Source: Nitrospinaceae bacterium (lineage in GTDB: Bacteria > Nitrospinota > Nitrospinia > Nitrospinales > VA-1). Taken from it: a stretch of 51,457 nucleotides of DNA. Position 1 is the first letter of the stretch; each line of letters begins with the position of its first letter. Where the stretch lies: positions 1-51,457 of the forward strand of contig JAJDBE010000104.1 of assembly GCA_029261515.1 (NCBI GenBank). Direction: 5' to 3'. This document shows positions 7,717 through 32,593 of the stretch, piece by piece. The position numbers and the translations under genes were made by a program. The notes beneath the pieces were generated by a model. That model was not told where the DNA came from and made no database searches. It was given only the letters and a program-made list of their open reading frames with translations.

Positions 7717-7728
7717 CCTATTGAGTTT

Positions 7729-9914: not shown

Positions 9915-11018
9915 TCATTCAGTAACGCTGGAAATCACCTCTTCCCACTGTCCGACGATCTTATCCTTGCTGAACCGCTCCACCACTTCCGGCGCATTGG
10001 CGGCCAATCGTTTTAGTTCCTTCTCATCCCCCATCAACCGGTCCAAGCCATCAGCCAGAGCCGTGACATCTTCAGCCGGAATTAACAGACCGTCGATTTC
10101 ATGACGAATGATTTCCCTGGGACCGCCAGGGCAATCGAAACTCAATACGGGAAGACCGCAGGCCATAGCTTCACCCAGAGAATTGACGAACCCTTCGTAA
10201 TATGAAGACAGCACGAACAATTGCGCCTTCTTCAATAAAAGAAAGGGATCTTTTAAACTACCGGGCAGAACCACCCGGTTCTCTAGATTTAAATTTTTGC
10301 TGAGGCTCTCTAACTCTGGACGAAGACTGCCCTCTCCCAGAATAATCAATTGCCAGTCGGGGTACTTATCAGCAATCTTCTGATACGCGGACAATAAAAG
10401 GTCGTAGCCTTTTGCATAACTAAGCCGCCCCATCGCCATCAGCCATTTTTTTCCCGGGTCGATACCCTTTGGCAACTGCAATTCGTCTGAACTCAAACTC
10501 GGGGACATGACCGGGTTCGAAATGACACACCTTTTGTCCTGCGGCAGCCATTTCAGGTAATCATCCGCTGATTTCGTAACACTCACCACCTTTGCAGCCA
10601 GGGGATAGGTCCATCGCCGCAGTTTGTCCCAGATGCCGCCGTGTAAATGTTTACTGGGCTCGCTCCGCTCTGACACGATCACCGGCACTCCCAAACCAAT
10701 GGTTGAAACAAGCGTGTGAACATTGATCTCCTCTAAAAAGGAAATAACGACCTGCGGTTGACTTTCTTTAATGGCTTTGCGCAAAACCCATAGCCGTTTG
10801 AAATTAGCGAGAAATCGTTGCACCGCGAAACGGGCCCGCTTTTGAAGACTCAAAGGGGAGTATTTTACGGAAGGGTGAAGATCAAAAAATGAAGGGCCAT
10901 CGGCAAACGTCAGAATCGTTATATCCCAGCCTTTCTCAGCCCAGTGATTCGCCAGAATGGACAAAACCCGTTCCGCGCCGCCTACTTCCATGGATGAGAT
11001 TACGAATGTAATTTTCAT
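9915..11018 (-). CDS. Glycosyltransferase family 4 (group 1)
   Basis: MKITFVISSMEVGGAERV is the typical GT4 N-terminus. YYEGFVNSLGEAMACGLPVLSFDCPGGPREII...DGLL is the E-x7-E motif. The start was trimmed from the track (11057) to ATG 11018, which is preceded by GGGG. Confidence 0.88.
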   Translation of the reverse strand: MKITFVISSMEVGGAERVLSILANHWAEKGWDITILTFADGPSFFDLHPSVKYSPLSLQKRARFAVQRFLANFKRLWVLRKAIKESQPQVVISFLEEINVHTLVSTIGLGVPVIVSERSEPSKHLHGGIWDKLRRWTYPLAAKVVSVTKSADDYLKWLPQDKRCVISNPVMSPSLSSDELQLPKGIDPGKKWLMAMGRLSYAKGYDLLLSAYQKIADKYPDWQLIILGEGSLRPELESLSKNLNLENRVVLPGSLKDPFLLLKKAQLFVLSSYYEGFVNSLGEAMACGLPVLSFDCPGGPREIIRHEIDGLLIPAEDVTALADGLDRLMGDEKELKRLAANAPEVVERFSKDKIVGQWEEVISSVTE

Positions 11019-13305: not shown

Positions 13306-13324
13306 CCATTCAAATTCAATTTGT

Positions 13325-13480
13325 GACCCTGTTCAAGTTTAAGGGAAGACGGTGCAAAACCGTCGCGGACCCGCCGCTGTAACCGGGAACGAACTCCGCA
13401 AATACCACTGCCTGATTTCCAGGTGGGAAGGTGCGGGAAGTAGGTCGATCCGGAAGCCAGAATACCTGACTGAACAGTCT
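13325..13480 (+). promoter_or_regulatory. Cobalamin (B12) riboswitch 1
   Basis: The conserved core is readable: AAGGGAAGACGGUGCAAAACCGUCGCGGACCCGCCGCUGUAACCGGG. A B12-box-like ACCACUGCC...GGUGGGAAGG and GAAGCCAGAAUACCUG are also present. The P1 stem pairs ctgttca (13329-13335) with tgaacag (13471-13477). This matches the RF00174-type consensus as I remember it. Confidence 0.9.
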
Positions 13481-13530
13481 TCGCAAACTCTTCGTGGACT
13501 TGAGGGGTGAAGGGTAAAGCAACCAAAAAC

Positions 13531-13556
13531 CCATTCCCTTAGAATGGTTTTTTTTT
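13531..13556 (+). terminator. Candidate attenuator terminator of riboswitch 1 (short hairpin plus U9)
   Basis: ccattc (13531-13536) pairs with gaatgg (13542-13547) across a 5-nt loop, followed by nine T (13548-13556). The stem is only 6 bp, so strength is uncertain. aaggg (13510-13514) could pair with ccctt (13536-13540) as an alternative structure. Confidence 0.5.
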
Positions 13557-13588
13557 GCCCTTTTTCCCACTGGAACGAGGCATTTCCG

Positions 13589-14617
13589 GTGGCAGAATCA
13601 ATCACATTTTCCGATCAGGGTGTCACCCGACCTGGGCCACTTGCGTTCGATAAACAGCCGCTTGCGACTCGACGCACACGCTCTGTCCGCAGCGTATGCC
13701 CCCTCCTTTTCCGCATTACCTGTCTTATCGTTCTGACGCTTGTTCTTTTTCAACCTGCCAGCGGTTGGTCTGAAGAAAACCCATCGTCTTCCCCACAAAG
13801 AATCGTCTCCATGTCTCCCGGCATCACCGAAATCCTGTTTGCCCTGGGCGTGGGCGACCGGGTAGTGGGAGTCACGGATTTCTGCAACTACCCTGAAGCC
13901 ACAAAATCAATCGCCAAAATCGGCGGCTTATTAAACCCAAGTTATGAAACGCTGATTACTCTCAAGCCCGATCTCATCGTCCATCAACCCGACAGCCACA
14001 AGGTGGATAATTTCGTGGAAAAACTCGGCATTCGGGGATTGCCAGTATCCATGCTCTCACTGGAGCAGATATTCGATACGATACAAACGATCGGCGCCGC
14101 CACAGGCAGTGACAAAAAAGCCGGGGAATTGATCCGGCAAATGAAGGATGAAATCCAGTCCTACCGCACCCGGCTGGCAGGGATTTCGACAAAATCCGTT
14201 CTGCTTGTACTGGGAATCAGCAACCATTCCATGCGTGACATTTACGGCGTCGGACCCAATACCTATCTGGACGAACTCCTGACCATCGCCGGAGGAGAGA
14301 ATCTGCTGGCGGACTCTCATTCGTCCTATCCGAAAATTTCCAAGGAATTCATCATTCACAAATCGCCGGAAGTCATCATCGAAGTCGGACCCACAAGAAT
14401 TTTGACCAGTGAGGCCAACATAAGCCGGAAAGCCGGCTGGAAAAAGTTTTCCACCATTCGCGCGGTAAAAAATAATGCCATCCATTTTGTCGCCAGCGAT
14501 TACGTCCTCATCCCTGGCCCGCGTCTCATCAATATCATCGCAGACTTTGCCAAAGCCATTCATCCCGGAGTTTTCCAGAACGTCGCGCCTTCAACAAGCG
14601 GGAGTACTTCCAAATGA
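13589..14617 (+). CDS. btuF: Periplasmic corrinoid-binding protein of an ABC importer (BtuF-like)
   Basis: RIVSMSPGITEILFALGVGDRVVGVTDFCNYPEA...LKPDLIV is typical of BtuF/FhuD-type class III binding proteins. The track start ATG 13544 sits inside the terminator hairpin and U-tract. I prefer GTG 13589, which has GAGG 8 nt upstream. A hydrophobic signal-like segment (LLFRITCLIVLTLVLF) is present. Confidence 0.82.
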   Translation: MAESITFSDQGVTRPGPLAFDKQPLATRRTRSVRSVCPLLFRITCLIVLTLVLFQPASGWSEENPSSSPQRIVSMSPGITEILFALGVGDRVVGVTDFCNYPEATKSIAKIGGLLNPSYETLITLKPDLIVHQPDSHKVDNFVEKLGIRGLPVSMLSLEQIFDTIQTIGAATGSDKKAGELIRQMKDEIQSYRTRLAGISTKSVLLVLGISNHSMRDIYGVGPNTYLDELLTIAGGENLLADSHSSYPKISKEFIIHKSPEVIIEVGPTRILTSEANISRKAGWKKFSTIRAVKNNAIHFVASDYVLIPGPRLINIIADFAKAIHPGVFQNVAPSTSGSTSK

Positions 14618-15396
14618 GTGCACCCATTTTACAACTCCAGGACGTTTCATTCGCTTACCAAAAGGACCCTGTTGTCAAACAAGTTTCTCTCAATATTCAT
14701 CCTGGCGAGTTTGTCGGCATTCTGGGGCCGAACGGGTCCGGCAAATCCACTCTGTTGAAATTAATGGGAGGTCTTCTAAAAAACGATTTGGGAAGTGTGC
14801 TCTTTAAGGAAACAGAGCTTGCTCAATATTCGAGAAAGCGTTTGGCCCAATCCATCGCCTGGATACCACAGGAACATCCCATGGTCTTTCCGTTTCGGGT
14901 TGCGGAAATCGTCCTCATGGGGCGTCATCCCTACCTCTCGCCATTGACGTTCGAAACGGAAAAGGATTTCGACATCGCGGGCCGGGCCATGGAAATCACC
15001 GACACCACGCATTTGTCCGGGCGCTCCTTCAATGAAGTCAGCGGCGGCGAAAAACAGCGCGTGGTCATCGCCAGCGCTCTGGCTCAGGAGCCGGAAATCA
15101 TGCTTCTCGACGAACCGACGTCGGCGCTGGACATCAAATACCAATTGGAAGTTCTGAATATTCTAAAACGCCTGAATCAAGAAAATGGCATGACGCTACT
15201 GCTGGCCATGCACGACCTGCACCTAGCCTCTAAATTCTGCCAACGCCTGATTCTCATCAACCAGGGACAAATTGTTAAAGACGGAACTCCGGAAGAGGTT
15301 TTGCAAAAAGAAGTACTCGAAAAAGTGTACGACGTTCGCATCAAACTGTTTCGCGATCATGAAGACGGTAGCGTCATGATCTCCCCGGAGTCGTGA
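14614..15396 (+). CDS. btuD: ABC transporter ATP-binding protein (BtuD/FepC-like)
   Basis: Walker A is GPNGSGKST, the signature is SGGEKQRV, and Walker B is LLDEPTSALD. The start overlaps the btuF stop as ATGA. Confidence 0.9.
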   Translation: MSAPILQLQDVSFAYQKDPVVKQVSLNIHPGEFVGILGPNGSGKSTLLKLMGGLLKNDLGSVLFKETELAQYSRKRLAQSIAWIPQEHPMVFPFRVAEIVLMGRHPYLSPLTFETEKDFDIAGRAMEITDTTHLSGRSFNEVSGGEKQRVVIASALAQEPEIMLLDEPTSALDIKYQLEVLNILKRLNQENGMTLLLAMHDLHLASKFCQRLILINQGQIVKDGTPEEVLQKEVLEKVYDVRIKLFRDHEDGSVMISPES

Positions 15397-16433
15397 TGCA
15401 CACGTTGAGTTTACCCATGATGAACCGCAGACGTTATCTATCGACCATCGGATGGTTCGGGCTGTTTTTTCTCGTGACGCTGGTCGCCGCTCCATTGATC
15501 GGTTTCACCCACATTGACCTTGGCAAAGCCCTGTCCAGCGAAATCGAATTTTCTGAGAACGTGGATGCCATGATCCTGTTCCTGGCGCGTCTGCCAAGAG
15601 TTCTATTGGCGGCCATCACCGGCGCGTCTTTAGCTGTTGCGGGTGCCGTGTTTCAAGCCATTTTGCGGAACGACCTCGCCGCTCCGATCACTCTTGGCGT
15701 TTCCAGCGGTGCGGCCTTCGGCGCGGTGCTGGCCATCAGCATGGGATTGTCCTTCACCGTTCTGGGGTTTTCCAGCATTCCGGTCGCGGCTTTTTTAGGA
15801 GCATTGGGAGCCATTACTCTCGTCTTCAGTCTGGTGAGAACCCGGCAAGGGGAATTGCCAACGTCAATGGTTCTTCTTGCAGGTGTGACGGTTAACTTCT
15901 TTTTCGCCGCAATGGTCATGTTCATTCATTATCTTTCAGATGTCACGCAATCGTTCCGCATCGTCCGCTGGCTGATGGGGGGACTCGACATCACCGATTA
16001 TCAGACCGTATTGTCAATTTGTCCCCCTGTTGTAATAGGAATGGGCATTCTGGCCTACATCGCCCGCGACCTGAACCTCATCAGCACCGGTTCGCAATCG
16101 GCTTTAAGCCGTGGCGTGGACGTGCCCAAAATACAAAAGCTGGGACTGGTCAGTGCTTCATTGATTACTGGAGCGGTCGTCGCTGTTTGCGGCCCCATCG
16201 GTTTTGTTGGCTTGATGGTCCCGCACATGGTGCGTCTACTCATCGGGCCGGATCAACGTTTGCTGATTCCCGCGTCGATGCTGTTCGGCGCCAGCTTCTT
16301 AATCATCTGTGATACCGTCGCCCGGACCGTCATTGCCCCGACGGAAATTCCTGTGGGCGTCATCACCGCTTTGATCGGCGGACCGTTTTTCGTGTGGCTG
16401 CTCAAAAAACAACATTGGATGTTCGGCAAATGA
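15393..16433 (+). CDS. btuC: FecCD-family ABC permease (BtuC-like)
   Basis: About 10 TM segments are visible. RLPRVLLAAITGASLAVAGAVFQAILRN and the C-terminal IPVGVITALIGGPFFVWLL are FecCD/BtuC hallmarks. It overlaps the ATPase gene by 4 nt. Confidence 0.9.
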   Translation: MMHTLSLPMMNRRRYLSTIGWFGLFFLVTLVAAPLIGFTHIDLGKALSSEIEFSENVDAMILFLARLPRVLLAAITGASLAVAGAVFQAILRNDLAAPITLGVSSGAAFGAVLAISMGLSFTVLGFSSIPVAAFLGALGAITLVFSLVRTRQGELPTSMVLLAGVTVNFFFAAMVMFIHYLSDVTQSFRIVRWLMGGLDITDYQTVLSICPPVVIGMGILAYIARDLNLISTGSQSALSRGVDVPKIQKLGLVSASLITGAVVAVCGPIGFVGLMVPHMVRLLIGPDQRLLIPASMLFGASFLIICDTVARTVIAPTEIPVGVITALIGGPFFVWLLKKQHWMFGK

Positions 16434-21117: not shown

Positions 21118-22064
21118 TCTGGCAAATCGCCATCGCATTTATTCTCGATCTGATCCTCGGCGATCCCCGAGGATACCCGCACCCGGTGCGGATCATCGGA
21201 TTCCTTGCCAAAAGACTGGAAAGCTTGACCCGGCATTATTTTCCCAATCTTTTTCTCGCAGGGGCCATCACCACAATTTTTATTGTTGGCGGAACTTTTG
21301 TCTGCGGCTTGGCCCTGCTTAGCGGATTGAGCTTGTTACACCCTTTTGCAGAAACCGCAGTTTCTATTTTCCTCATCTACACCTGCCTGTCGGCACGCAG
21401 TTTGTACGATGAGAGCCTTCCCGTTTTACACGCATTGAAGCAGGACCAGATAAACCTCGCACGAAAGCGCTTGTCGCGAATCGTTGGCCGGGACACAAAG
21501 AATTTGAATCCAAAAGAGATCGCCCGCGCCACGGTGGAAACCGTTGCAGAGAGTACCGTGGATGGAATTATCGCCCCACTATTCTATGCATTTATTGGCG
21601 GAGCGCCTCTGGCCCTCGCGTACAAGGCAATCAACACGCTGGATTCCATGTTTGGTTACAAAAACGCTGCTTATAAAAAATTTGGGATGATCCCCGCCCG
21701 TCTCGACGATGCGGCCAACTGGGTTCCCGCCCGGCTGGGAGGCGTTATCATGGCCATTGCCGCAGCGGTCAGCGGTTTCGATGGAAAACGTTCGTGGAGC
21801 ACCCTTCAACGCGATGGCGCCAAGCACCTCAGCCCCAATGCGGGGATTCCTGAATCGGCAGTCGCCGGAGCGCTGGGCATCCAGCTTGGCGGATCAAGCT
21901 TCTATGGTGGCCAGCGGGTGGACAAGCCTTGTATAGGAAGAAATCAAAAAGAAATTGCCGTGACAGATATTTCACATAGTCACAAGATCATGTTCGTCTC
22001 TTCAGCTTTAGCTTTAGTAGCACTCATGGTCTTAAAAAAAATAATGGAGAATTTTATGCTGTAA
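21108..22064 (+). CDS. cbiB: Adenosylcobinamide-phosphate synthase
   Basis: The N-terminal LDLILGDPRGYPHPVRIIG is the CbiB/CobD(Pd) signature. The protein is membrane-embedded. It overlaps cobD by 10 nt. Confidence 0.93.
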   Translation: MDLIWQIAIAFILDLILGDPRGYPHPVRIIGFLAKRLESLTRHYFPNLFLAGAITTIFIVGGTFVCGLALLSGLSLLHPFAETAVSIFLIYTCLSARSLYDESLPVLHALKQDQINLARKRLSRIVGRDTKNLNPKEIARATVETVAESTVDGIIAPLFYAFIGGAPLALAYKAINTLDSMFGYKNAAYKKFGMIPARLDDAANWVPARLGGVIMAIAAAVSGFDGKRSWSTLQRDGAKHLSPNAGIPESAVAGALGIQLGGSSFYGGQRVDKPCIGRNQKEIAVTDISHSHKIMFVSSALALVALMVLKKIMENFML

Positions 22065-22084
22065 ACATTTTCATTAGTGCCAAA

Positions 22085-22230
22085 CGTTCCGGTTCAGGGA
22101 AGTCCGGTGAAAGTCCGGCACTGCCCCGCAACTGTAAATGGGAACGAAAACCGCATCTTTAGCCACCTTTCTTGCCGGAGGGGAAGGCGCGGTGAGTAGG
22201 CCGCCCAAAGTCAGGAGACCTGGCGGAACG
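22085..22230 (+). promoter_or_regulatory. Cobalamin (B12) riboswitch 2
   Basis: The core is GGUUCAGGGAAGUCCGGUGAAAGUCCGGCACUGCCCCGCAACUGUAA. AGCCACC...GGGGAAGGCG and AAGUCAGGAGACCUGGC are also present. P1 pairs cgttcc (22085-22090) with ggaacg (22225-22230). It starts 21 nt after the cbiB stop. No U-tract terminator follows. A small hairpin, ccttc (22241-45)/gaagg (22250-54), overlaps the btuB Shine-Dalgarno sequence. Confidence 0.93.
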
Positions 22231-22262
22231 CATTATAAATCCTTCGCGGGAAGGGGCAAACT

Positions 22263-24113
22263 ATGCTTTGTTTTAGATTGTTTTCGTGCTGTTTTTTGTT
22301 TCTATTATCAATCCTTGTACTGTCACCCATGAATCACGTGGCCGAAGCTACCCAGAAGTTAAATACACTTTCAGTCATATCCACCCGTGCTCAGTTTGGG
22401 GTGAATGAAGCCCCGACTTCCGTGTCGGTCATCACCAAAGAGGAAATTGAGCAAAAGCAGGGGTTTCAGGTGAAAGACCTTTTAAAAGAAGAACTGGGAA
22501 TGGATGTGATTCAAAACGGCCCGCCGGGAACCAATACCAGTGTTTTCATGCGCGGCGCGGGTTCCAGCTCGACACTGGTACTGGTGGACGGGGTGCAAGT
22601 CAACACAAATACCGTTGGGTCTTTCAACTTTGCCGATCTTACCGTCGATAATATCGAGAAGGTCGAAATTCTGAGAGGACCGCAAAGCACTCTCTGGGGA
22701 TCGGATGCAGTCGGAGGGGTGATCAACATCATCACAAAAAAAGGCACCGGAGCGCCAACTCATTCCTTCTCTTTTGAAGGCGGAAGTTTTGGAACCTTCA
22801 AGGAAACAGGAAACAGTTCGGGCGATCTCGGCTTCATGGATTATTCCCTTAGCATTTCCCGGACCGACAGCGAAGGTTTCTCCGCCGCCAATGAGGATCG
22901 CGGGAATAATGAGCAGGATGGCTATGAAAATACGACTCTCTCGACCCGGCTGGGCCGTAATTTCCTTGAAGACGGACGCGTCGAGTTCATTGGACGCTAC
23001 ACCAAATCCCAGGTGGATTTCGATTCCTTCGGCCCCGTCGATGGCAAAGACTTTAGCAAACTGGATGCATTGTATCTGGCGGCGCCTGTGCAAAAATCCT
23101 TTTTCGGCATCTGGGACGTGAAAGTCAATCCCACGTTCGCCTACGACGATCTCGATTCGTCCAATAACTCTTCCACCCAGTCATTTATCATCAACCGCAC
23201 CTACGGCGTGGACGTGCAGAATAATGTCGAAATCACCGACTTTCTCTCCACTACGTTTGGTTTCGAATATGAAATCCGCAATGGCGTGAACGAGAATAGC
23301 AGTCTGAGGCAAAACATTTACAACCAGGGATATTATCTTCAGACGCAGTTGCACCCGGGAGAACGGATCGTGTTGACGGCGGGATTCCGTCACGACGTCA
23401 ACTCGGTGTTTGAAGACCCGACCACTTATAAGTTTGAAGGCGCGTACCGGATACTGGAAACAAACACCCGCATTCGCGGGGCCTACGCCACCGGCTTCCG
23501 CGCCCCAAGTATCAACGAACTGTTCTTCCCCAACTTTGGCACTCCAACCCTGAAGCCGGAAGAGAGCGAAGGCTGGGAAGTGGGGATCGATCAATCCTTA
23601 TTGGAAGGCGTTGTGCAGGTGGGCGTCACTTATTTCCAGATGGACTTCGATAATTTAATCGAAACAGTGGACCTTGGCGGATTCACTTTCCGCGCGCAAA
23701 ACGTGGCCAAAGCCACCACCGAAGGCGTGGAAACTGCCATTGATGTCGCATTACCCAAGAATTTCAAGGTCGCTTTGAACTACACCTGGCTGAAGGCAAG
23801 GGATGATGACGATCAACCCCTACAACGCCGGGCCGAGCATAGTTTTTCCGCCAATTTGAGCCATACCTGGGACAAGAAACTTCATTCTCTGGTCGGCGTT
23901 CGCGTACGAAGCGATACCCGCTCCAACAACACGGGGACACAGACCGCGGATGCGTTCACCGTGGTGCGTGCGGCGCTGAGTTATAAGGTCAATAAAAACC
24001 TCAAGGTTACCGCGCGTGGCGAAAACCTTTTTGATGAACAGTATGAAGAAATCTTCGGATTCGGAACCGCGGGGATTTCCGGGTATGCCGGGTTCACCTG
24101 GACATTCAACTGA
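22263..24113 (+). CDS. btuB: TonB-dependent outer-membrane corrinoid receptor
   Basis: A signal peptide is followed by a TonB-box-like LNTLSVIS. The plug motifs are VSVITKEEIEQ...FMRGAGSSSTLVLVDGVQVN...IEKVEILRGPQSTLWGSDAVGGVINIITK. The C-terminus is barrel-like. The gene sits directly behind a B12 riboswitch. Confidence 0.9.
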   Translation: MLCFRLFSCCFLFLLSILVLSPMNHVAEATQKLNTLSVISTRAQFGVNEAPTSVSVITKEEIEQKQGFQVKDLLKEELGMDVIQNGPPGTNTSVFMRGAGSSSTLVLVDGVQVNTNTVGSFNFADLTVDNIEKVEILRGPQSTLWGSDAVGGVINIITKKGTGAPTHSFSFEGGSFGTFKETGNSSGDLGFMDYSLSISRTDSEGFSAANEDRGNNEQDGYENTTLSTRLGRNFLEDGRVEFIGRYTKSQVDFDSFGPVDGKDFSKLDALYLAAPVQKSFFGIWDVKVNPTFAYDDLDSSNNSSTQSFIINRTYGVDVQNNVEITDFLSTTFGFEYEIRNGVNENSSLRQNIYNQGYYLQTQLHPGERIVLTAGFRHDVNSVFEDPTTYKFEGAYRILETNTRIRGAYATGFRAPSINELFFPNFGTPTLKPEESEGWEVGIDQSLLEGVVQVGVTYFQMDFDNLIETVDLGGFTFRAQNVAKATTEGVETAIDVALPKNFKVALNYTWLKARDDDDQPLQRRAEHSFSANLSHTWDKKLHSLVGVRVRSDTRSNNTGTQTADAFTVVRAALSYKVNKNLKVTARGENLFDEQYEEIFGFGTAGISGYAGFTWTFN

Positions 24114-24155
24114 TTTCCCAAAATGACTCGATTCATCAATTACCCGGAGGAGACT

Positions 24156-24740
24156 ATGACTTCAGACAAATATTTTAAAATTAAACTGCTTGCGGGTCTC
24201 GTCGTTTTAATGGTCCTGACCCGCTACTCAATATTTCGGCCACTCGGGTTGCCAAGTGCGACCCTGGTGGTTTTCTTCATCGCCGGCATTTACCTAAGGC
24301 AATGGATTTTTCCGGCCCTGCTTATCGGCGCCGCCGGCTTCACCGATTACTTGTCTGTTCAAGGTGGCAGCGGCATTTGGTGCATCACTCCTGCCTATAG
24401 TTTTCTGATCCCCACCTACCTCGCTTTATGGTTCGGAGGCCGCAGATTTCAAAGCCTTCAAACAGAGGACTTACGACAGGCAGCTTCTATGGCCTTGGTT
24501 TTATGGATCGCTTCCACTGCCGCGTTTATGATTTCCAACGGCAGTTTTTACGCACTCTCCGGACATGAGGTTTATGAAAATATGAATTTGCTGGATTACA
24601 TCCAAATTCAAATCAATCGCTATCCGGTCTACATTTTAAAACCGTTTCTCTATTTAGGAACTTTGATTGCGATTTTTTATAAGGGAATTTTTCCACAATA
24701 CTTAAAATCGAAAGAATTGTCAGCCAGCATTCCTAAATGA
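24156..24740 (+). CDS. Uncharacterised ~6-TM small membrane protein (candidate corrinoid transporter, BtuM/DUF6580-like)
   Basis: The protein is 194 aa from ATG 24156, which has the strong SD GGAGGAG at 24146-24152; the track start is 24123. Six hydrophobic segments are visible, and there is a single Cys (C76, codon 24381-24383). Its stop overlaps the cbiA start as ATGA. No catalytic motif is recognisable. Confidence 0.6.
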   Translation: MTSDKYFKIKLLAGLVVLMVLTRYSIFRPLGLPSATLVVFFIAGIYLRQWIFPALLIGAAGFTDYLSVQGGSGIWCITPAYSFLIPTYLALWFGGRRFQSLQTEDLRQAASMALVLWIASTAAFMISNGSFYALSGHEVYENMNLLDYIQIQINRYPVYILKPFLYLGTLIAIFYKGIFPQYLKSKELSASIPK

Positions 24741-26140
24741 AAACTGTCATAAAAAAATTGGATCGCTCTCCTCCCGGCTTTGTTATTGCCGGAACCCACA
24801 GCGGAGTCGGAAAAACTTCCATCACCGTGGGATTCATGCGCCTGTTGACCCGGAGGGGGGTGCGCGTCCAACCGTTTAAAGTGGGCCCGGATTACATCGA
24901 TCCGGGCCATCACACCCGCGCCTGTGAACAACCCGCGTACAATCTGGATTCCTTCATGAGTTCACGCAAGTATGTACAACGCCTTTTTCATGATGTCGCG
25001 CAGAAGTCGGATGTTGGCGTTGTGGAAGGGGTGATGGGTCTGTTCGATGGCGCATTTTCCAAAAAGGAGAAAGGCTCCACTGCGGAAATCGCCAAACTCC
25101 TCAACCTTCCGGTCATCCTGATTTTTAACGGCGAGGCCATTGCCCGTTCTGCCGCAGCTCTGGTCAAGGGTTTTCTGGAGTTTGACCCTGACGTGAAGTT
25201 TCTGGGAGTCATAGCCAACCGGGTCACCCATCCCAAACATGCCGAACTTCTAAAACAAGCCATCGAACGCTACACCCGCGCCCGGTTCTTGGGGCACCTG
25301 CCCTCTTCACCAGAATTATCCATTCCCAGCCGCCATCTCGGTTTATTTCAGAGCCATGAGAATCAATCCACGCTGTACGACCAATGGGCGGACCATTTGG
25401 AAAAACACCTCGACATCGATGCTATTTTGAGGAAAGCCAGGGTTCCGCAAAAGATTCCTTCCCGAAAAAAGGCGCCCACCGTTTTTCGCTGGCCTCGAAG
25501 GCCGTCTTCATTTTCCTTTAAAGTGGCAATTGCCAGGGACGACGCTTTTCAATTTTACTATCAGGACACCTTGGATTGCCTGGCGCACAACGGCGGCGAA
25601 ATCCATTACTTTTCTCCCCTCCGGGATAAAAAATTACCCGATGGTACCGATTGGATTTATCTCCCAGGCGGATATCCCGAACTGTTCGCAAAAAAATTAA
25701 GCTCCAACCAAAAAATGTTGCAAGTCATCCGAACCTTTGGAGAAACCGGAAAAGTGATTGTCGGAGAATGCGGCGGCCTGATGTATCTGGGGCAATCCAT
25801 TACAGACGAAAAAAATAAAGTGTTTCCGATGGCGGGGTTATTCGACTTCTCCACTTCGATCCAAAATAAGAAACTGACGCTCGGCTATAGGAAGTTGGCT
25901 TACCGTCCAAACGACGACTCAAAAAAAAATCTAGTTTTAACCGGACATGAATTTCATTCTTCCAGTTTCACGGAGAATGAGGAAGCTCCCCAGATGACTC
26001 AAAAATCGAAAGAAAACAGCCGCTCGGTTAAAGACGGGTACCGGGTCAAAAATTCTTTCGCTTTGTATTCACATATTTATTGGTCGAGTTCTCCAGGGTG
26101 GATGAATTATATTTTGAATACCGTGCAGAGGACCCAATGA
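24737..26140 (+). CDS. cbiA: Cobyrinate a,c-diamide synthase
   Basis: FVIAGTHSGVGKTSITVGFMRLLTRRGVRVQPFKVGPDYIDPGHH and VEGVMGLFDG are the CbiA/CobB N-domain. The C-terminal GATase part carries ECGGLMYLG. Confidence 0.93.
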   Translation: MKTVIKKLDRSPPGFVIAGTHSGVGKTSITVGFMRLLTRRGVRVQPFKVGPDYIDPGHHTRACEQPAYNLDSFMSSRKYVQRLFHDVAQKSDVGVVEGVMGLFDGAFSKKEKGSTAEIAKLLNLPVILIFNGEAIARSAAALVKGFLEFDPDVKFLGVIANRVTHPKHAELLKQAIERYTRARFLGHLPSSPELSIPSRHLGLFQSHENQSTLYDQWADHLEKHLDIDAILRKARVPQKIPSRKKAPTVFRWPRRPSSFSFKVAIARDDAFQFYYQDTLDCLAHNGGEIHYFSPLRDKKLPDGTDWIYLPGGYPELFAKKLSSNQKMLQVIRTFGETGKVIVGECGGLMYLGQSITDEKNKVFPMAGLFDFSTSIQNKKLTLGYRKLAYRPNDDSKKNLVLTGHEFHSSSFTENEEAPQMTQKSKENSRSVKDGYRVKNSFALYSHIYWSSSPGWMNYILNTVQRTQ

Positions 26141-26691
26141 AAAAGCGACCTCCATCCGATCCCAGGAAACGCAAAGGCCTGATCATCGTCAACACCGGCG
26201 AGGGCAAGGGGAAATCCACAGCCGCTTTTGGAGTGGCTTTGAGGGCCGCTGGCAACAAAATGAATGTGTTCATCATGCAATTCATGAAAGGCAACTGGAA
26301 GGCCGGAGAAAGGAAATCTTTTGAGAAGCTCGGGGATTATGTCGAAATCATACCGATGGGAGACGGGTTCACCTGGGACACTCAAAACCCGGAACAGGAC
26401 CAGAAAACGGCAAGAAAAGCCTGGGACATCGCCGTTGAAAAATTAAACAGCGGCAACTACGACCTGGTGGTTCTCGATGAAATCAATTACGTTCTTGATT
26501 ACGGTTTTTTTCCGCTTGATGAGTTTCTACAAGCGATCCAAAATAAACCGCCTCATGTGCATGTGATCTGCACAGGGCGAAACGCGCCTGAAGGACTCAT
26601 CGAACTTGCGGATCTGGTCACTGAAATGCGCAGCGTCAAACATCCATTCAAGGACCAGCAAATTCCAGCGCAAAAAGGCATTGAATTCTAA
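26137..26691 (+). CDS. cobO: Cob(I)yrinic acid a,c-diamide adenosyltransferase
   Basis: KGLIIVNTGEGKGKSTAAFG...QFMKG...LDE are CobO/BtuR motifs. ATG 26137 overlaps the cbiA stop as ATGA, so I prefer it over the track start 26080. Confidence 0.93.
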   Translation: MKKRPPSDPRKRKGLIIVNTGEGKGKSTAAFGVALRAAGNKMNVFIMQFMKGNWKAGERKSFEKLGDYVEIIPMGDGFTWDTQNPEQDQKTARKAWDIAVEKLNSGNYDLVVLDEINYVLDYGFFPLDEFLQAIQNKPPHVHVICTGRNAPEGLIELADLVTEMRSVKHPFKDQQIPAQKGIEF

Positions 26692-26695
26692 AGTA

Positions 26696-28102
26696 ATGAT
26701 ACCGATGATGAATTTAACTTCTCTCAAACAGGCCATGAAGAAACGCCCGCTTCGCTACACGGTCGTGCTGTCTGTCATTGTACATATGGCGGTCCTTGTT
26801 TTTTTCCAATCCTGGGAACTGCTTCCCATGAAGAAAAACGAAATCCCGAAAAATACCATTCGCATTAAAACCATTCAAAAACCCGAAGAAATCAAGCCCG
26901 CGGAAAAACAGATTGTCCGGGAAAAGAAAATTATGCATATAAAACCTCCTGAAAAACGTCAACCAGTGTTAAAATTTCAAGAGGTTATGACCAAAGCTCC
27001 ATTAGTAAAATCCGCAATGATTGACAAGCCCAGACACGTGCAGATGAAACAAAGAACTCCTGAAAACACCCTAAAGCCTGATTTCAAAATTCAACCTGTG
27101 GCGATATCCCAACCAGACGCGATCAGCCATCGTTTAAATAAAGTCCCATTGAAATCGCAAAAACTAAAATTTCTATCAGACACTCGACCCACTGCCATTT
27201 TCACAAAGCCCCATGCGAAACTTCCGCAAACGATTTCGCTTGCCGCCAAACAGCCCGCTAATTCGATTTTGACATTCCAAGCACAGAAAGCTCCCGTTCA
27301 GACGGCAATTCATTCTTATGCAATAGCACAAAACTTAAGCCCGCAAAAGGCCGTGCAACCGCAACGGGTTTTTGTAAAAATGGAATCCATCACAAAACCC
27401 TCTGTTGTCCGAATATCAAAATCAAAGGAACCCGAAAGAACCCAACCCGTCAACCCCGTTCAACCCAGCGACCTGCGACAACTTGCATCCGGTTCCACAA
27501 ACGCTCCGGTTTCTCAGAGGAAATCCGATTTTGCTACTTCAACACAAAAAATGACGGGGATCGAGGCGCGGTCCATTCAAGGTTTAACCAGCCAGTCACA
27601 AACGAAAATTAAGTCCGCATCCGCTGTCGTACCCGAAACAACCTCTTCCTCTGTTCGGCACATAGCGCCTTTACAAATGGCATCCATTCCGGCTGATTTT
27701 TCAGAAATCATTCCTGGCGCTGGAAAAGAGCCGGTTTCCGAACCGACCAATCCCAATGCAAACTCCACCGAAAACCTGCAAGAGAATTCTACTGAATTTC
27801 TGGGAGAAGCCCGGAAGCAGTTTTCGTCTCAGGTCTGGAACAGAATCGCCCAGTTCAAACACTATCCCAGAATTGCCAGAAACCGCGGATTTGAAGGGCA
27901 GCCGGTCGTCGCTTTCACGCTCGGCCATAACGGAGAACTCCTGGAAATTTCCGTTGAGCAACCCTCTCCTTTCAAATTACTGGATCAAGCCGCACTGAAA
28001 GCAGTCCGGGCGGCAAGCCCTTATCCTTCGATTCCCAAATCGCTTAATTTGCAATCCATTCGGTTTAAATTACCCGTATCCTTTATACTGGAGGAACCAT
28101 GA
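26696..28102 (+). CDS. TonB-family energy-transducer-like protein with unusually long linker
   Basis: The N-terminal TM anchor is LRYTVVLSVIVHMAVLVFF. About 330 aa of K/P/Q/S/T-rich linker follow. The C-terminal TonB domain is YPRIARNRGFEGQPVVAFTLGHNGELLEISVEQPSPFKLLDQAALKAVRAASPYPSIP. ATG 26696 is 4 nt after the cobO stop. Confidence 0.75.
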   Translation: MIPMMNLTSLKQAMKKRPLRYTVVLSVIVHMAVLVFFQSWELLPMKKNEIPKNTIRIKTIQKPEEIKPAEKQIVREKKIMHIKPPEKRQPVLKFQEVMTKAPLVKSAMIDKPRHVQMKQRTPENTLKPDFKIQPVAISQPDAISHRLNKVPLKSQKLKFLSDTRPTAIFTKPHAKLPQTISLAAKQPANSILTFQAQKAPVQTAIHSYAIAQNLSPQKAVQPQRVFVKMESITKPSVVRISKSKEPERTQPVNPVQPSDLRQLASGSTNAPVSQRKSDFATSTQKMTGIEARSIQGLTSQSQTKIKSASAVVPETTSSSVRHIAPLQMASIPADFSEIIPGAGKEPVSEPTNPNANSTENLQENSTEFLGEARKQFSSQVWNRIAQFKHYPRIARNRGFEGQPVVAFTLGHNGELLEISVEQPSPFKLLDQAALKAVRAASPYPSIPKSLNLQSIRFKLPVSFILEEP

Positions 28103-28830
28103 GAGCTAGAGTTTGGATAACCCTGTTTTTGTTCGTAGCGATTGGACTCCTGCCCTTTCCTGCCCGTGGTGAAATTCTTCAAATAGACAGCGACTTTGAC
28201 GGCAAGCTGGACCAGTGGCACGAATTGTCGGCGGATGGTCAAATCCTTAAAATCGAATATGATTCCAACGGCGACGGCAAGCTCGACCAGGTGGACATCT
28301 ACGAAGGCAACAAAAAACCTATTCTTGCCAAGCTCGACCGGAACTACGATGGCATCCTCGACCAATTTCAGTTTTACTCCAAAAATGGAGGATTGGAACG
28401 CGTCGAGAAAGATTCCAAATTCAGAGGCATGGTGGATTGGAAGGAATATTTTGATCCCAAGCAGAAATTGATGCGGATCGAAATGGATGAAAACCTCGAT
28501 GGCAACATGGACGTTTTCCACTTTCTCGATGAAAAGGGAAAGCTGGTTCGGGTGGAATACGACACCAATCACAGTGGGAAAATTGATCGCTGGGAATATT
28601 TTAAAGGAGATAAAGTCCTTCACTCCGCCGCCTTTGATGCCAATGAAGACGGCAAACAGGATCAATGGCAGTATTTCCTGGAGTCCACCAAACTTGAAAA
28701 AGTAGAGTTCGACACCAATGCGGACGGCAACGTCGACCGCTGGGAATTTTATAATCCTTCGGGGCAATTGCTCCGAGTGGAATTGGACCGCAATCACGAC
28801 GGCACAATGGATCTGGTAAAACGCAGATAA
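28099..28830 (+). CDS. Secreted protein made of nine 25-aa DxNxDGxxD (EF-hand/dockerin-like Ca-loop) repeats
   Basis: The signal peptide is MRARVWITLFLFVAIGLLPFPARG. After it come nine tandem units such as DSNGDGKLDQVDIYEGNKKPILAKL, DENLDGNMDVFHFLDEKGKLVRVEY and DTNADGNVDRWEFYNPSGQLLRVEL. The start overlaps the TonB-like stop as ATGA. Confidence 0.7.
   Translation: MRARVWITLFLFVAIGLLPFPARGEILQIDSDFDGKLDQWHELSADGQILKIEYDSNGDGKLDQVDIYEGNKKPILAKLDRNYDGILDQFQFYSKNGGLERVEKDSKFRGMVDWKEYFDPKQKLMRIEMDENLDGNMDVFHFLDEKGKLVRVEYDTNHSGKIDRWEYFKGDKVLHSAAFDANEDGKQDQWQYFLESTKLEKVEFDTNADGNVDRWEFYNPSGQLLRVELDRNHDGTMDLVKRR
28186..28827 (+). repeat. Coding tandem repeat, ~75-nt period, nine copies (protein-level conservation)
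   Basis: I aligned the units by eye from the translation. The consensus is D-x-[ND]-x-D-G-x-x-D-x-[WF]-x-[YF]...G-x-L-x-x-V-E. Confidence 0.8.
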
Positions 28831-28842
28831 CAGGAGTTCATC

Positions 28843-29226
28843 ATGTTTTTTTTTCGTTCGGGGATTTTACTTTTAGTTGTGTTTCTCGCGTCCTGCGCGC
28901 CGCAGCCAACCAAGGAAGTTCCCGCAGAGTTTAAGCTGGGGCAAAAATATTTCCACAAAACCTGTTCCAACTGTCATGGTTCGGACGCAATGGGCAAACA
29001 CACCCAGGCCCCCACGATCATCGACGCGGAATACATTGAACCAAACTTTACAGACGATGATTTCCGCGAAACCATCATCAACGGTGTCAACAAAATGCCT
29101 CCGCAGCGCAACAAGGTCAACGATGAGGAAATAAACGAAATCATCAAATACCTGCGTTACTCCCAGAAAGCCGCGGACCTTGTCGTGGAAGAAGACCCGG
29201 ACTCGGAAGAAATGCTTGAGGAATAG
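28843..29226 (+). CDS. Monohaem class I c-type cytochrome, lipoprotein
   Basis: The lipobox is VFLASC. The single haem motif is CSNCH, and the distal Met context is GVNKMPP. The tail is acidic. The protein is 127 aa. Confidence 0.8.
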   Translation: MFFFRSGILLLVVFLASCAPQPTKEVPAEFKLGQKYFHKTCSNCHGSDAMGKHTQAPTIIDAEYIEPNFTDDDFRETIINGVNKMPPQRNKVNDEEINEIIKYLRYSQKAADLVVEEDPDSEEMLEE

Positions 29227-29256
29227 GGAAAACGAAAAAGCCGGATTGAATAAGCA

Positions 29257-30318
29257 ATGACCGAAATAATCAAGCACACTCTCAATCAAATCCAGGCGGT
29301 TGATCCACGCAATCTGGAAATTGCCCAGGAACGCCTGGATATCCTGACAAAACCTCCCGGCAGTCTGGGACGCTTGGAAGAGTTCGCCCGCCGCTACGCC
29401 GCCATCAAGGGGACGGACTCTCCTCGGGTCCGCAACAAAACGGTTTTTGTTTTTGCCGCCGACCATGGGATCGTCGCCGAAGGAGTCAGCGCTTATCCTG
29501 CGGAGGTCACCCCGCAGATGGTGCAGAATTTTCTGAATGGCGGAGCGGCTATCAATGTCCTGGCGCAACATGCAGGAGCGGAGGTGGTCGTGGTCGATAT
29601 CGGCGTCAACTTCGATTTCGAAGCCTGCCCGAACCTGATTCACAGGAAAATCGCTCCCGGAACCCGCGACATGTCCAAGGAACCCGCCATGACCCGCCAA
29701 CAGGCGGAAGAAGCCTTGCAAACCGGCATCGAACTGGCCGGACAATGGGTAGAGAAGCAGACCGACATTTTTGCCACCGGCGACATGGGAATAGGCAACA
29801 CCACTGCCGCCGCCGCCATCATGTCTCTATATGGAAACAAAACCCCGCGCCAGGTCACCGGCAAGGGAACCGGCATCGATGAGGCCACGCTTTCCAGAAA
29901 AATCCAGCTAATTGAACAGGCCATCCGCATCAATCAGCCAGACCCGAAAGACCCAATCGATGTTCTTGCCAAAGTGGGCGGGTTCGAGATCGCCGGTATC
30001 GCCGGACTTATTCTAGGAGCGGCGGCCAACAAAACCCCCGTCGTCATCGACGGATTGATCTCCGGCGCCGCCGCCGTATGCGCCTGTCACATGAATTCCG
30101 CTATTCGGGATTACCTCTTCCCTTCGCACAAATCCCAGGAACCGGGGCATGATGTGTTTTTCCAGACTTTAGCTTCCCCTCCCCTGTTTGATTTCGGCAT
30201 GCGCCTGGGAGAAGGCACCGGAGCCGTTCTGGCTCTGAACATTCTCGAAGCGTCCGTAAAAATCTACTCCCAAATGGCCACCTTTAGAGAAGCGCACGTT
30301 TCCGCCAATGCCATTTAG
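29257..30318 (+). CDS. cobT: Nicotinate-nucleotide--dimethylbenzimidazole phosphoribosyltransferase
   Basis: LTKPPGSLGRLEE, FAADHG, GDMGIGNTT and MRLGEGTGA are canonical CobT motifs. Confidence 0.95.
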   Translation: MTEIIKHTLNQIQAVDPRNLEIAQERLDILTKPPGSLGRLEEFARRYAAIKGTDSPRVRNKTVFVFAADHGIVAEGVSAYPAEVTPQMVQNFLNGGAAINVLAQHAGAEVVVVDIGVNFDFEACPNLIHRKIAPGTRDMSKEPAMTRQQAEEALQTGIELAGQWVEKQTDIFATGDMGIGNTTAAAAIMSLYGNKTPRQVTGKGTGIDEATLSRKIQLIEQAIRINQPDPKDPIDVLAKVGGFEIAGIAGLILGAAANKTPVVIDGLISGAAAVCACHMNSAIRDYLFPSHKSQEPGHDVFFQTLASPPLFDFGMRLGEGTGAVLALNILEASVKIYSQMATFREAHVSANAI

Positions 30319-31240
30319 GTGCATGATGCAAAAATCCATCCTGATATTTTTTGCTTTTTGGTTTTGCATCCTCTTCCTGGCCAATCCAGTTTTTAGCTTC
30401 GACGACGATTCCACCGACGACACCCGCAGTCTCCTGGAAATCCGCACCATCTGTAACAACGGAAGAACCGTTATCGACAGCGACTTGAACCGGTCCTCCT
30501 GCCAAGGTGACAACGCCTATTTAAACCAACTGCAATCCGCCCTGTTCAAAAACGACAAGGAATTGATTCACAAGGATATTCTAGATTTTAAGATCGCCAG
30601 AAATGGAAACGTCTTTTACCGCACGGAAATCGGACCTTACCTTTATAGCGAACAGGGGCAACTCAACAGCAACGGAAGCATCGTCACCCTGTTTCTGGTT
30701 TCATCCTCCGGCGATGTCGTGTATCTCAACGACCGGGGCGACATTTTCAAAAACGGAGTGGAACTGAACCGAGGTCCCGCCAGAATTCCCGTGAGATTTG
30801 CAAAAATCAGGTTTCTCGGTGAAAGGATCATCCTTTTTCAAAATCCAGTGGTTTCGCGCAACGGAAAAGCCATTTACATCAACGATGCGGGGCAGTTGCT
30901 TGTGGATGGCAACCGCATCGATCCCAAAACAGGCAACGTCGTCGCGCTCCGGTTGAATTCCGAAGGCGATGTTTACTTCATCGACGATAACAACCGTCTC
31001 TACCGAAATACCCAACGACTGTTTGACGGACGATTTAGAATTCTTGAGTTTCAGCTCAGCAACACAGGTCAGGTCGCCTACCTGACCGATGCCATATCCA
31101 ACAACCTCTTCCTGGAGGACCAGGTCCTTTCCGCGGGATCACAAAAGGTGGTCCGCTTCAACTTTGACAGCTCCGGCGATATCATTTATCAGGATGAACT
31201 TGGCCGTCTCTGGAAAAACGGTCAACAGATCGGCTATTGA
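30308..31240 (+). CDS. Secreted hypothetical protein with about six degenerate ~35-40-aa blade-like repeats
   Basis: A signal-like N-terminus (MMQKSILIFFAFWFCILFLANPVFS) is present. Recurring units include SSSGDVVYLNDRGDIFKNGVEL, SRNGKAIYINDAGQLLVDGNRI, SEGDVYFIDDNNRLYRNTQRL and SSGDIIYQDELGRLWKNGQQI. The start could be ATG 30308 (11-nt overlap with cobT), 30323 or 30326. Confidence 0.6.
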   Translation: MPFRCMMQKSILIFFAFWFCILFLANPVFSFDDDSTDDTRSLLEIRTICNNGRTVIDSDLNRSSCQGDNAYLNQLQSALFKNDKELIHKDILDFKIARNGNVFYRTEIGPYLYSEQGQLNSNGSIVTLFLVSSSGDVVYLNDRGDIFKNGVELNRGPARIPVRFAKIRFLGERIILFQNPVVSRNGKAIYINDAGQLLVDGNRIDPKTGNVVALRLNSEGDVYFIDDNNRLYRNTQRLFDGRFRILEFQLSNTGQVAYLTDAISNNLFLEDQVLSAGSQKVVRFNFDSSGDIIYQDELGRLWKNGQQIGY

Positions 31241-31261
31241 ACTTCCCACCCCGTCCTTTTC

Positions 31262-31290
31262 TTGACAGAAACCCCGTTTTTGGCTAAATT
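31262..31290 (+). promoter_or_regulatory. Candidate sigma70 promoter (TTGACA-17 nt-TAAATT)
   Basis: A consensus -35 ttgaca is at 31262-31267 and taaatt is at 31285-31290. The track ORF begins at this very TTG, so I read it as a promoter element rather than a start codon. Confidence 0.45.
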
Positions 31291-31351
31291 GAACGGTTCT
31301 ATCAGCATCAATCAACCTATTAGAATTCCTGATTCCGGAGAAGAACACACC

Positions 31352-32593
31352 ATGTCCGATAAAGAAAGTTATATACAGTCCCTTTTTGCCGAGAGACTGG
31401 GGGGGAACCAGTTTGGCAAAGACACCAAAATTTATAAATTTGAAAAAATTAAACGCGCCAAACGCGCCGCCCTCGATGCCAACCCCGGTAAGGAGTTGTT
31501 CGACATGGGAGTGGGTGAGCCGGACGAAATGGCCTATCCCGGCGTCATCAAGTCTCTGCAACTCGAAGCGGAGAAACCCGAAAACCGCGGCTACACCGAT
31601 AACGGTGTCCAGGAATTCAAGGAAGCCGCAGTGACTTACATGAAAAACGTGTTCGCAGTCGATGGACTGGATGCGAACAAGCACGTGAACCACACCATCG
31701 GGTCCAAGCCCGGTCTGGCGATGGTTTCCGCAATCTATATCAACCCCGGCGACGTCACACTCATGACGGTTCCCGGTTACCCGGTCATGGGGACACATGC
31801 CCAGTTTTATGGAGGCGAGGTGGTCAACCTACCATTGACCGAGGACAATCATTTCCTTCCCGATCTCAAGAACATCGACCCCAAAACTATTGAGCGGACG
31901 AAACTGCTTTACCTCAACTACCCCAACAATCCGACAGGGGCCAACGCCACACGCGAGTTTTTTGCAGAAGCGGTGGAGTTTGCCAAAAAGAATAACATCG
32001 TGGTCATTCAGGATGCGGCGTATGCGGCGTTGACATACAACGACAGTCCCTTAAGCTTTCTTTCCGTACCGGGCGCGATGGATGTTGGCATTGAGTTTCA
32101 CTCCTTATCCAAGGCCTACAATATGACCGGGTGGCGCATCGCCTTCGCCGTCGGCAACGAACTCGTGATCAAAGGTCTCGCGCATGTGAAGGACAATATT
32201 GATTCCGGGCAGTTCGCCGCCATCCAGAAAGCCGGGGTTTACGCTTTGAATCATCCGGAGATCACCGAGGAAATCCGTGATAAATACAAGAGGCGGCTCG
32301 GCCTGATGGTGGACGCTCTCAACTCGGTAGGGTTCAACGCTGGCCTGCCGGGAGGTTCGTTTTTCCTGTACGTCAAAGCGCCCAAGGCAATCGCAGGCGG
32401 GCAGGAGTTTAAAAGCGCCGAGGACTTTTCCCAGTTCATGATAAAGGAAATGCTGATCTCCACCGTCCCGTGGGATGATGCGGGACCCTTCGTCCGTTTT
32501 TCCGCCACCTTTGCGGCAAACGGAGCCGAAGAGGAAAAACGCATCATGACGGAAATCAAGAAACGGCTGTCTTCGGTAAAATTCGTTTTTTAA
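31352..32593 (+). CDS. Class I/II PLP aminotransferase, LL-diaminopimelate aminotransferase-like
   Basis: DMGVGEPD, YPNNPTG and the PLP-Lys motif HSLSKAYNMTGWRIAF are present. The N-terminal FGKDTKIYKFEKIKRAK segment resembles DapL-type enzymes as I recall them. ATG 31352 has GGAGAAG upstream. Confidence 0.8.
   Translation: MSDKESYIQSLFAERLGGNQFGKDTKIYKFEKIKRAKRAALDANPGKELFDMGVGEPDEMAYPGVIKSLQLEAEKPENRGYTDNGVQEFKEAAVTYMKNVFAVDGLDANKHVNHTIGSKPGLAMVSAIYINPGDVTLMTVPGYPVMGTHAQFYGGEVVNLPLTEDNHFLPDLKNIDPKTIERTKLLYLNYPNNPTGANATREFFAEAVEFAKKNNIVVIQDAAYAALTYNDSPLSFLSVPGAMDVGIEFHSLSKAYNMTGWRIAFAVGNELVIKGLAHVKDNIDSGQFAAIQKAGVYALNHPEITEEIRDKYKRRLGLMVDALNSVGFNAGLPGGSFFLYVKAPKAIAGGQEFKSAEDFSQFMIKEMLISTVPWDDAGPFVRFSATFAANGAEEEKRIMTEIKKRLSSVKFVF

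Follow-up and report, generated by a model that had tools for sequence, protein, structure and literature searches.

A probable BtuM-family protein encoded between btuB and cbiA in a Nitrospinaceae B12 locus that also carries btuFDC

A contig assigned to a Nitrospinaceae bacterium (GenBank assembly GCA_029261515.1, contig JAJDBE010000104.1), analysed here over its 51,457 nucleotides (the window), contains a small open reading frame (ORF; 24156-24740, + strand) wedged between the gene for an outer-membrane vitamin B12 receptor and that for a cobyrinic acid a,c-diamide synthase. The original prediction described its product as a BtuM-like or new corrinoid permease or decyanase. Since the same locus also encodes a predicted BtuFCD importer, the question arises as to what this protein is and what role it could have beside that importer. 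The comparisons described below make it very probable that the protein is an unannotated member of the BtuM family, with a function in corrinoid import assigned from its homology to BtuM of Thiobacillus denitrificans (BtuM_Td).

The ORF is real and specifies a product of 194 aa. Read off the sequence, a Shine-Dalgarno element, GGAGGAG (24146-24152, + strand), ends 3 nt 5' of the ATG at 24156. The last nucleotide of the btuB stop codon is 24113; the gap is thus 42 nt and the ORF begins 43 nt past btuB, while at the distal end the TGA stop codon (24738-24740) and the cbiA ATG (24737-24739) share the sequence ATGA in a 4-nt overlap. An alternative, longer frame begins at an ATG at 24123; ATG 24156 is favoured as the start because the N-termini of homologues, M[TKN]S[DN], line up with it in the family alignment. 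The sole cysteine of the protein is C76, within GIWCITPAY, and D64 and Y81 are also present. Protein length, Shine-Dalgarno element, 43-nt spacing, cbiA overlap, single cysteine and the D64/Y81 pair had all been pointed out in the original prediction and were confirmed in the sequence; the six hydrophobic segments that it reported correspond to six long helices in an AlphaFold2 (AF2) model.

To place the ORF in its setting, the genes of the locus were assigned with NCBIfam and Pfam scans and its riboswitches with Rfam; every feature given here with coordinates lies on the + strand. The window contains two cobalamin riboswitches, both matching the RF00174 aptamer. Riboswitch 1 (13318-13487, 100.1 bits) precedes btuF (13544-14617; NCBIfam BtuF NF002894, E = 6.9e-28), btuD (14614-15396; corrinoid ABC ATPase NF007082, E = 1.2e-69) and btuC (15393-16433; BtuC NF007081, E = 1.2e-77), each of which scores below the equivalog cutoff with the named family as its best or near-best match. 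Together, btuF-btuD-btuC (13544-16433) are predicted from sequence to give the locus of the ORF a complete type II ABC importer for corrinoids, and the run continues with cobQ, cobS, a cobU-bluB fusion, cobD and cbiB. Riboswitch 2 (22073-22241, 82.3 bits, E = 8e-19) lies directly ahead of btuB (22263-24113), which encodes the TonB-dependent outer-membrane vitamin B12 receptor (NCBIfam TIGR01779 TonB-B12, E = 8.1e-91; best family, below the equivalog cutoff). The ORF is next, followed by cbiA/cobB, encoding cobyrinic acid a,c-diamide synthase (24737-26140; NCBIfam NF002204, 495.8 bits against a cutoff of 254), cobO/btuR, encoding ATP:corrinoid adenosyltransferase (26137-26691; Pfam PF02572, E = 6.9e-68), a gene for a TonB-like protein with a C-terminal TonB domain (26606-28102; Pfam PF03544 TonB_C, E = 1.6e-14), genes for more envelope proteins, and cobT. 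The start of cobO/btuR was set at the ATG that gives 184 aa, matching the 184-aa orthologues in two other Nitrospinaceae loci (L001 and L002), and the true start of the TonB-like protein is probably downstream of 26606.

A scan of 21900-31500 returned no promoter-like or terminator-like site in the gap between btuB and the ORF; because the counts over the whole scan were at chance level, we infer co-transcription of btuB, the ORF and cbiA from gene spacing. Between 13544 and 30318 the window encodes post-cobyrinate steps only (cbiA, cobO, cobQ, cobD, cbiB, cobU-bluB, cobS and cobT), and the NCBIfam and Pfam scans of this interval detected no corrin-ring genes, which fits the B12 auxotrophy published for Nitrospinae. 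The retention of cbiA in a locus lacking corrin-ring genes raises a question of its own.

The family of the protein was established by sequence and by predicted fold. A single-sequence phmmer search of PDB chains retrieved 8c7p_A/8ovv (199 aa) at E = 2e-16 over residues 14-169, and a profile of 27 family members retrieved the same chain at E = 2e-44. These entries are deposited as “Cobalamin ABC transporter” and are titled in Foldseek as tagless BtuM with cyanocobalamin or hydroxycobalamin. Counted along the alignment, the cysteine of 8c7p_A is residue 80, and it is aligned to C76 of the window protein. The AF2 model, built with the family alignment as input, has a pLDDT of 86.6 and a pTM of 0.82, with long helices at residues 2-23, 36-46, 51-69, 79-95, 106-134 and 145-189; comparison of this model with 8c7p/8ovv by Foldseek gave a probability of 1.00, TM scores of 0.73-0.80 and 30% identity. 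Sequence, predicted fold, the Cys/Asp/Tyr triad and gene context thus agree with the original assignment as BtuM-like, and the S-component-like family to which profile similarity had been sought proved to be BtuM itself. The ORF was therefore designated a btuM homologue, encoding a six-helix, S-component-like protein that is a predicted corrinoid transporter/decyanase with Cys76 as predicted cobalt ligand.

Could the resemblance to BtuM conceal a protein of another kind? An ECF S-component, or another small permease such as a DUF6580 protein or a CbiM-like cobalt uptake protein, with a different substrate and only a likeness to BtuM, is very unlikely. S-components (RibU, FolT, ThiT, PanT and the B12-specific CbrT) resemble the window protein in being small six-helix vitamin-binding membrane proteins, and RibU, FolT, ThiT and PanT were the Foldseek runners-up, but only as weak fold neighbours (E > 0.4, TM 0.43-0.56) and with no detectable sequence similarity: S-component sequence families were not matched in Pfam to E ≤ 10, in NCBIfam, or by the profile against PDB. 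The BtuM match is stronger by orders of magnitude, the BtuM-specific Cys, Asp and Tyr are conserved, and no EcfT or EcfA gene was found among the window neighbours scanned with NCBIfam and Pfam. For the window protein and 27 relatives, the Pfam-A and NCBIfam models gave sub-threshold noise only, namely DUF6538 (E = 0.037) and CbiM (NCBIfam, E = 0.67); CbiM, at 9.6 bits against a cutoff of 172, was rejected. DUF6580, named as an alternative in the original prediction, was likewise discarded, having no Pfam match at E ≤ 10 for the protein or at E ≤ 1 for the 27 family members. The published description of BtuM is of an S-component-like fold without sequence relatives, and BtuM-type proteins function without an ECF module (PMC6072759). 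That Pfam and NCBIfam leave the protein unannotated is also the sole point in favour of a chance ORF, a reading that hundreds of homologues of conserved length with invariant residues effectively refute; a chance ORF or a decayed, functionless gene is barely conceivable given the strong Shine-Dalgarno element, the cbiA overlap suggesting translational coupling, the confident fold and the conserved synteny.

The relationship to BtuM_Td (Tbd_2719; PDB 8c7p, 8ovv; PMC6072759; Martinez Felices et al. 2024, Structure 32:1165) extends beyond the fold. Both proteins have about 190-200 aa and six helices in an S-component-like arrangement, a single conserved cysteine in loop 3 (C76, equivalent to C80), equivalent Asp and Tyr residues (D64 to D67, Y81 to Y85) and a TR motif ending helix 1, and both are encoded right after btuB, near btuR/cobO and under cobalamin riboswitch control. 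In contrast, identity is about 30%, the window protein has Ile26 for His28, Ser34 for Asp37 and Ile for Arg153, and it carries a two-residue insertion in loop 5. Its host belongs to Nitrospinota, outside the published proteobacterial host list, and its gene, apparently coupled translationally to cbiA, shares a locus with btuFDC. The departures in sequence are minor, and the protein itself is an ordinary member of the family.

The residues that define the family were examined in an alignment of 211 sequences, comprising the window protein, BtuM_Td residues 7-179, the proteins of 85 loci and 124 representatives. BtuM_Td D67 (window D64) is present in all 211, C80 (window C76) and Y85 (window Y81) in 209 each, R25 (window R23) in 207 and T24 (window T22) in 202. 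The positions at which the window protein departs from BtuM_Td are less constant: His occupies position 28 in 182/211 (window I26), Asp position 37 in 182/211 (window S34), and Arg position 153 in 114/211 (Ile in the window protein). Within the Nitrospinaceae clade the position of His28 varies, being His in L001 and L010, Ala in the L002/L011 group, and Ile or Leu in the window protein and its 79%-identical relatives. In BtuM_Td, Cys80 is the cobalt ligand and its replacement (C80S) abolishes complementation and decyanation; the binding-pocket residues listed are H28, D67, Y85 and R153, and the mutants H28A, Y85L and R153A keep cobalamin binding and decyanation (PMC6072759). The alignment of C76 with Cys80 accords with the original expectation of a cobalt-ligating cysteine near residue 80. 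Since the H28A and R153A mutants still bind and decyanate, the missing His and Arg are no argument against function in the window protein, and since the family itself also varies there, they do not define BtuM membership. In the tagless BtuM structures of Martinez Felices et al. from 2024, His28 is reportedly the native β-axial ligand; if so, the β position in the window's clade would be left to solvent or another group.

The BtuM family is of moderate size. Searches at E ≤ 1e-3 yielded 45 homologues in a set of 5.8 billion proteins and 396 clusters at 50% identity, and 561 relatives were found across 185,579 species genomes; among named relatives, a hypothetical protein from a Nitrospinae MAG is the closest. 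In a maximum-likelihood tree, the window protein falls in a clade with 98% support together with L001, L010, L002, L011 (Nitrospinaceae) and L024 (Nitrospina sp.). In the same tree BtuM_Td branches within the proteobacterial part of the family, which places the window protein inside the BtuM family and not beside it. The published host list covers alpha-, beta- and gamma-proteobacteria, with no Nitrospinota, and one of the hosts on it, Methylobacter tundripaludum SV96, is represented among the loci (L046).

Two members of the set call for comment on their labels. L010 (JAJFIL010000105.1) is labelled as an Alphaproteobacteria MAG, and yet it is syntenic with the window (cobS, cobU-bluB, cobD, cbiB, riboswitch, btuB, btuM), and its BtuM, at 64% identity, groups inside the Nitrospinaceae clade; a wrong bin or a wrong label is probable. 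P0104, an 865-aa protein from the representative search, has a BtuM domain at about residues 51-215, with a full BtuB in the same polypeptide. It was not accepted as a BtuM-BtuB fusion: the BtuB part retains its own Met and a signal-peptide-like segment, and a read-through gene call over a btuM-btuB gene order is for this reason at least as likely.

The gene context of the homologues was surveyed with tblastn, using the B12 proteins of the window as queries against 89 loci, 85 after removal of duplicates. Where 2.5 kb or more of upstream sequence was available (68 loci), the gene immediately preceding btuM in the same orientation is btuB in 60. Of 24 loci scanned with Rfam, all but L051 have a cobalamin riboswitch upstream in the same orientation (23 of 24), so that the linkage to B12 riboswitches on which the original prediction had placed weight is conserved among homologues. 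Downstream, cobO/btuR occurs within 2.5 kb of btuM in 8 loci, in agreement with the published co-localisation of btuM with btuR (PMC6072759), and cbiA comes immediately after btuM in the window, L001, L002, L011, L008 and L057.

Several arrangements in this survey are of interest in their own right. In L008 (7689-11886), from a long-branch lineage, a minimal operon consists of riboswitch, btuB, btuM and cbiA, with a 4-nt btuM/cbiA overlap, and no other cob gene lies within 10 kb, leaving a lone cobyrinate a,c-diamide synthase tied to B12 uptake genes. In L034 (10568-13023; Gallionella sp.), riboswitch, btuB and btuM are followed directly by a 586-aa ABC_membrane+ABC_tran half-transporter of exporter-type fold and a 1-Cys peroxiredoxin. 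This arrangement is found again in L016, L049, L087, L025, L038 and L070 (Gallionellaceae and some Methylococcales), and is a second kind of ABC transporter recurring next to the supposedly solitary BtuM. In L037 (Candidatus Manganitrophaceae), tandem cobalamin aptamers (7626-7824 and 7943-8114, within 7626-8114) stand ahead of btuB-btuM-cobT-cobS-btuFCD.

How unusual is the presence of BtuFCD beside BtuM? Among the 43 loci flanked by 8 kb or more on each side, a BtuC-like gene lies on the same strand within 10 kb of btuM in 4 (L001, L024, L037 and L065), and L064, with shorter flanks, is a fifth BtuC-containing btuM locus. The taxa concerned are Nitrospinaceae (L001, L024), Candidatus Manganitrophaceae (L037), Nitrospiria (L064) and a Methylococcaceae MAG (L065). 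The pairing is thus a minority arrangement but a recurrent one, concentrated in phyla related to nitrite oxidisers; the original view that it would be unusual holds as to its frequency, whereas the arrangement is not unique to the window. In L024 and L065, btuM closes the btuFDC/btuCD operon itself. In L024 (5364-10766; uncultured Nitrospina sp.), a single run comprises riboswitch, btuF, btuD, btuC, cobQ and btuM, and a second riboswitch (10601-10766) is followed by btuB-cbiA-cobO, such that btuM is operonic with BtuFCD and not with btuB. BtuM hosts have been described as being without ECF modules, and a lack of BtuCDF is not stated for them (PMC6072759). For Nitrospinae, B12 auxotrophy has been described, and btuCDF and btuB are given as their only B12 uptake genes, BtuM being unmentioned (PMC8026999).

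The homology with BtuM_Td and the order of genes suggest a model for the locus. BtuB, energised by the locus-encoded TonB, would bring corrinoid into the periplasm. The BtuM homologue would bind it in the base-off form, the thiolate of Cys76 (loop 3, facing the periplasm) serving as α-axial cobalt ligand; this ligation would labilise and remove the β-ligand, for example cyanide, and the protein would then move the corrinoid across the inner membrane without ATP. In the cytoplasm, CbiA and then adenosylation by CobO/BtuR would modify the corrinoid and so trap it. Riboswitch 2 would switch off the btuB-btuM-cbiA-cobO-tonB transcription unit when B12 is present. Corrinoid binding, decyanation and transport by the window protein are thus proposed by analogy with BtuM_Td, and no in vitro transport has been reported for BtuM_Td itself (PMC6072759).

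The main challenge to this model comes from the ABC importer. The proteins encoded by btuFDC, 8-10 kb upstream, share with BtuM a substrate class, an inner-membrane location and riboswitch-type regulation, but they form an ATP-driven, multi-subunit system of unrelated fold, and no chemical modification of substrate is known for BtuFCD. With a full BtuFCD at the locus a second importer seems redundant, and the main role of the BtuM homologue may be corrinoid processing. The protein would then be a true BtuM homologue but not an importer here, serving instead as a partner at the periplasmic face, in β-ligand removal and base-off conversion, or as a carrier of incomplete corrinoids, while BtuFCD carries out bulk import. 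We regard this as improbable, although a number of observations are in line with it: in the window and in L001, BtuFCD and BtuM share a riboswitch-controlled locus, btuM is the last gene of the importer operon in L024 (Nitrospina) and L065 (Methylococcaceae), Gallionella and some Methylococcales have the half-transporter after btuM, and btuM stands directly ahead of cbiA in the six loci named above. In addition, BtuM_Td binds cobinamide with a sub-micromolar Kd, with decyanation as a separate, slow step (PMC6072759). However, in E. coli without BtuFC, BtuM_Td on its own is sufficient for B12-dependent growth, and its support of hydroxycobalamin uptake argues against a pure decyanase (PMC6072759). 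Moreover, BtuC is absent nearby in 39 of the 43 fully flanked btuM loci, and adjacency of genes is no proof of physical or functional coupling.

The coexistence with BtuFCD would allow a more specific proposal, which we offer as speculation. In nitrite-oxidising Nitrospinota and Nitrospirota, BtuM might be a co-regulated partner of BtuFCD and not a substitute for it, taking up or processing corrinoids that are poor substrates for BtuFCD and passing them to CbiA, to which it would be translationally coupled, and to CobO. Conceivable substrates, put forward with equal reserve, are incomplete corrinoids, for instance cobinamide and cobyrinate, as well as cobalamins whose upper ligand, such as cyanide or nitrite, is tightly bound.

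What is new here is the extension of the known BtuM family to Nitrospinota; the only unusual point is the B12-regulated locus shared with a complete BtuFCD. BtuM was characterised in 2018 (Rempel et al., PMC6072759) and its structures have been solved, and Pfam-A and NCBIfam nevertheless still miss it. The relatives in the protein set carry the label hypothetical because BtuM-family proteins are not picked up by any model in either library. The presence of a BtuM homologue in this B12 locus refines the picture of corrinoid acquisition in these nitrite oxidisers, abundant in the sea and B12-auxotrophic according to the literature on the phylum, and the recurrence of btuM with ABC importers bears on the question of whether solitary S-component-like proteins are full transporters or processing partners. 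If BtuM does act as a partner of BtuFCD in these organisms, B12 auxotrophs would salvage a wider corrinoid pool than has been assumed, and the cysteine chemistry of BtuM would gain an ecological role.
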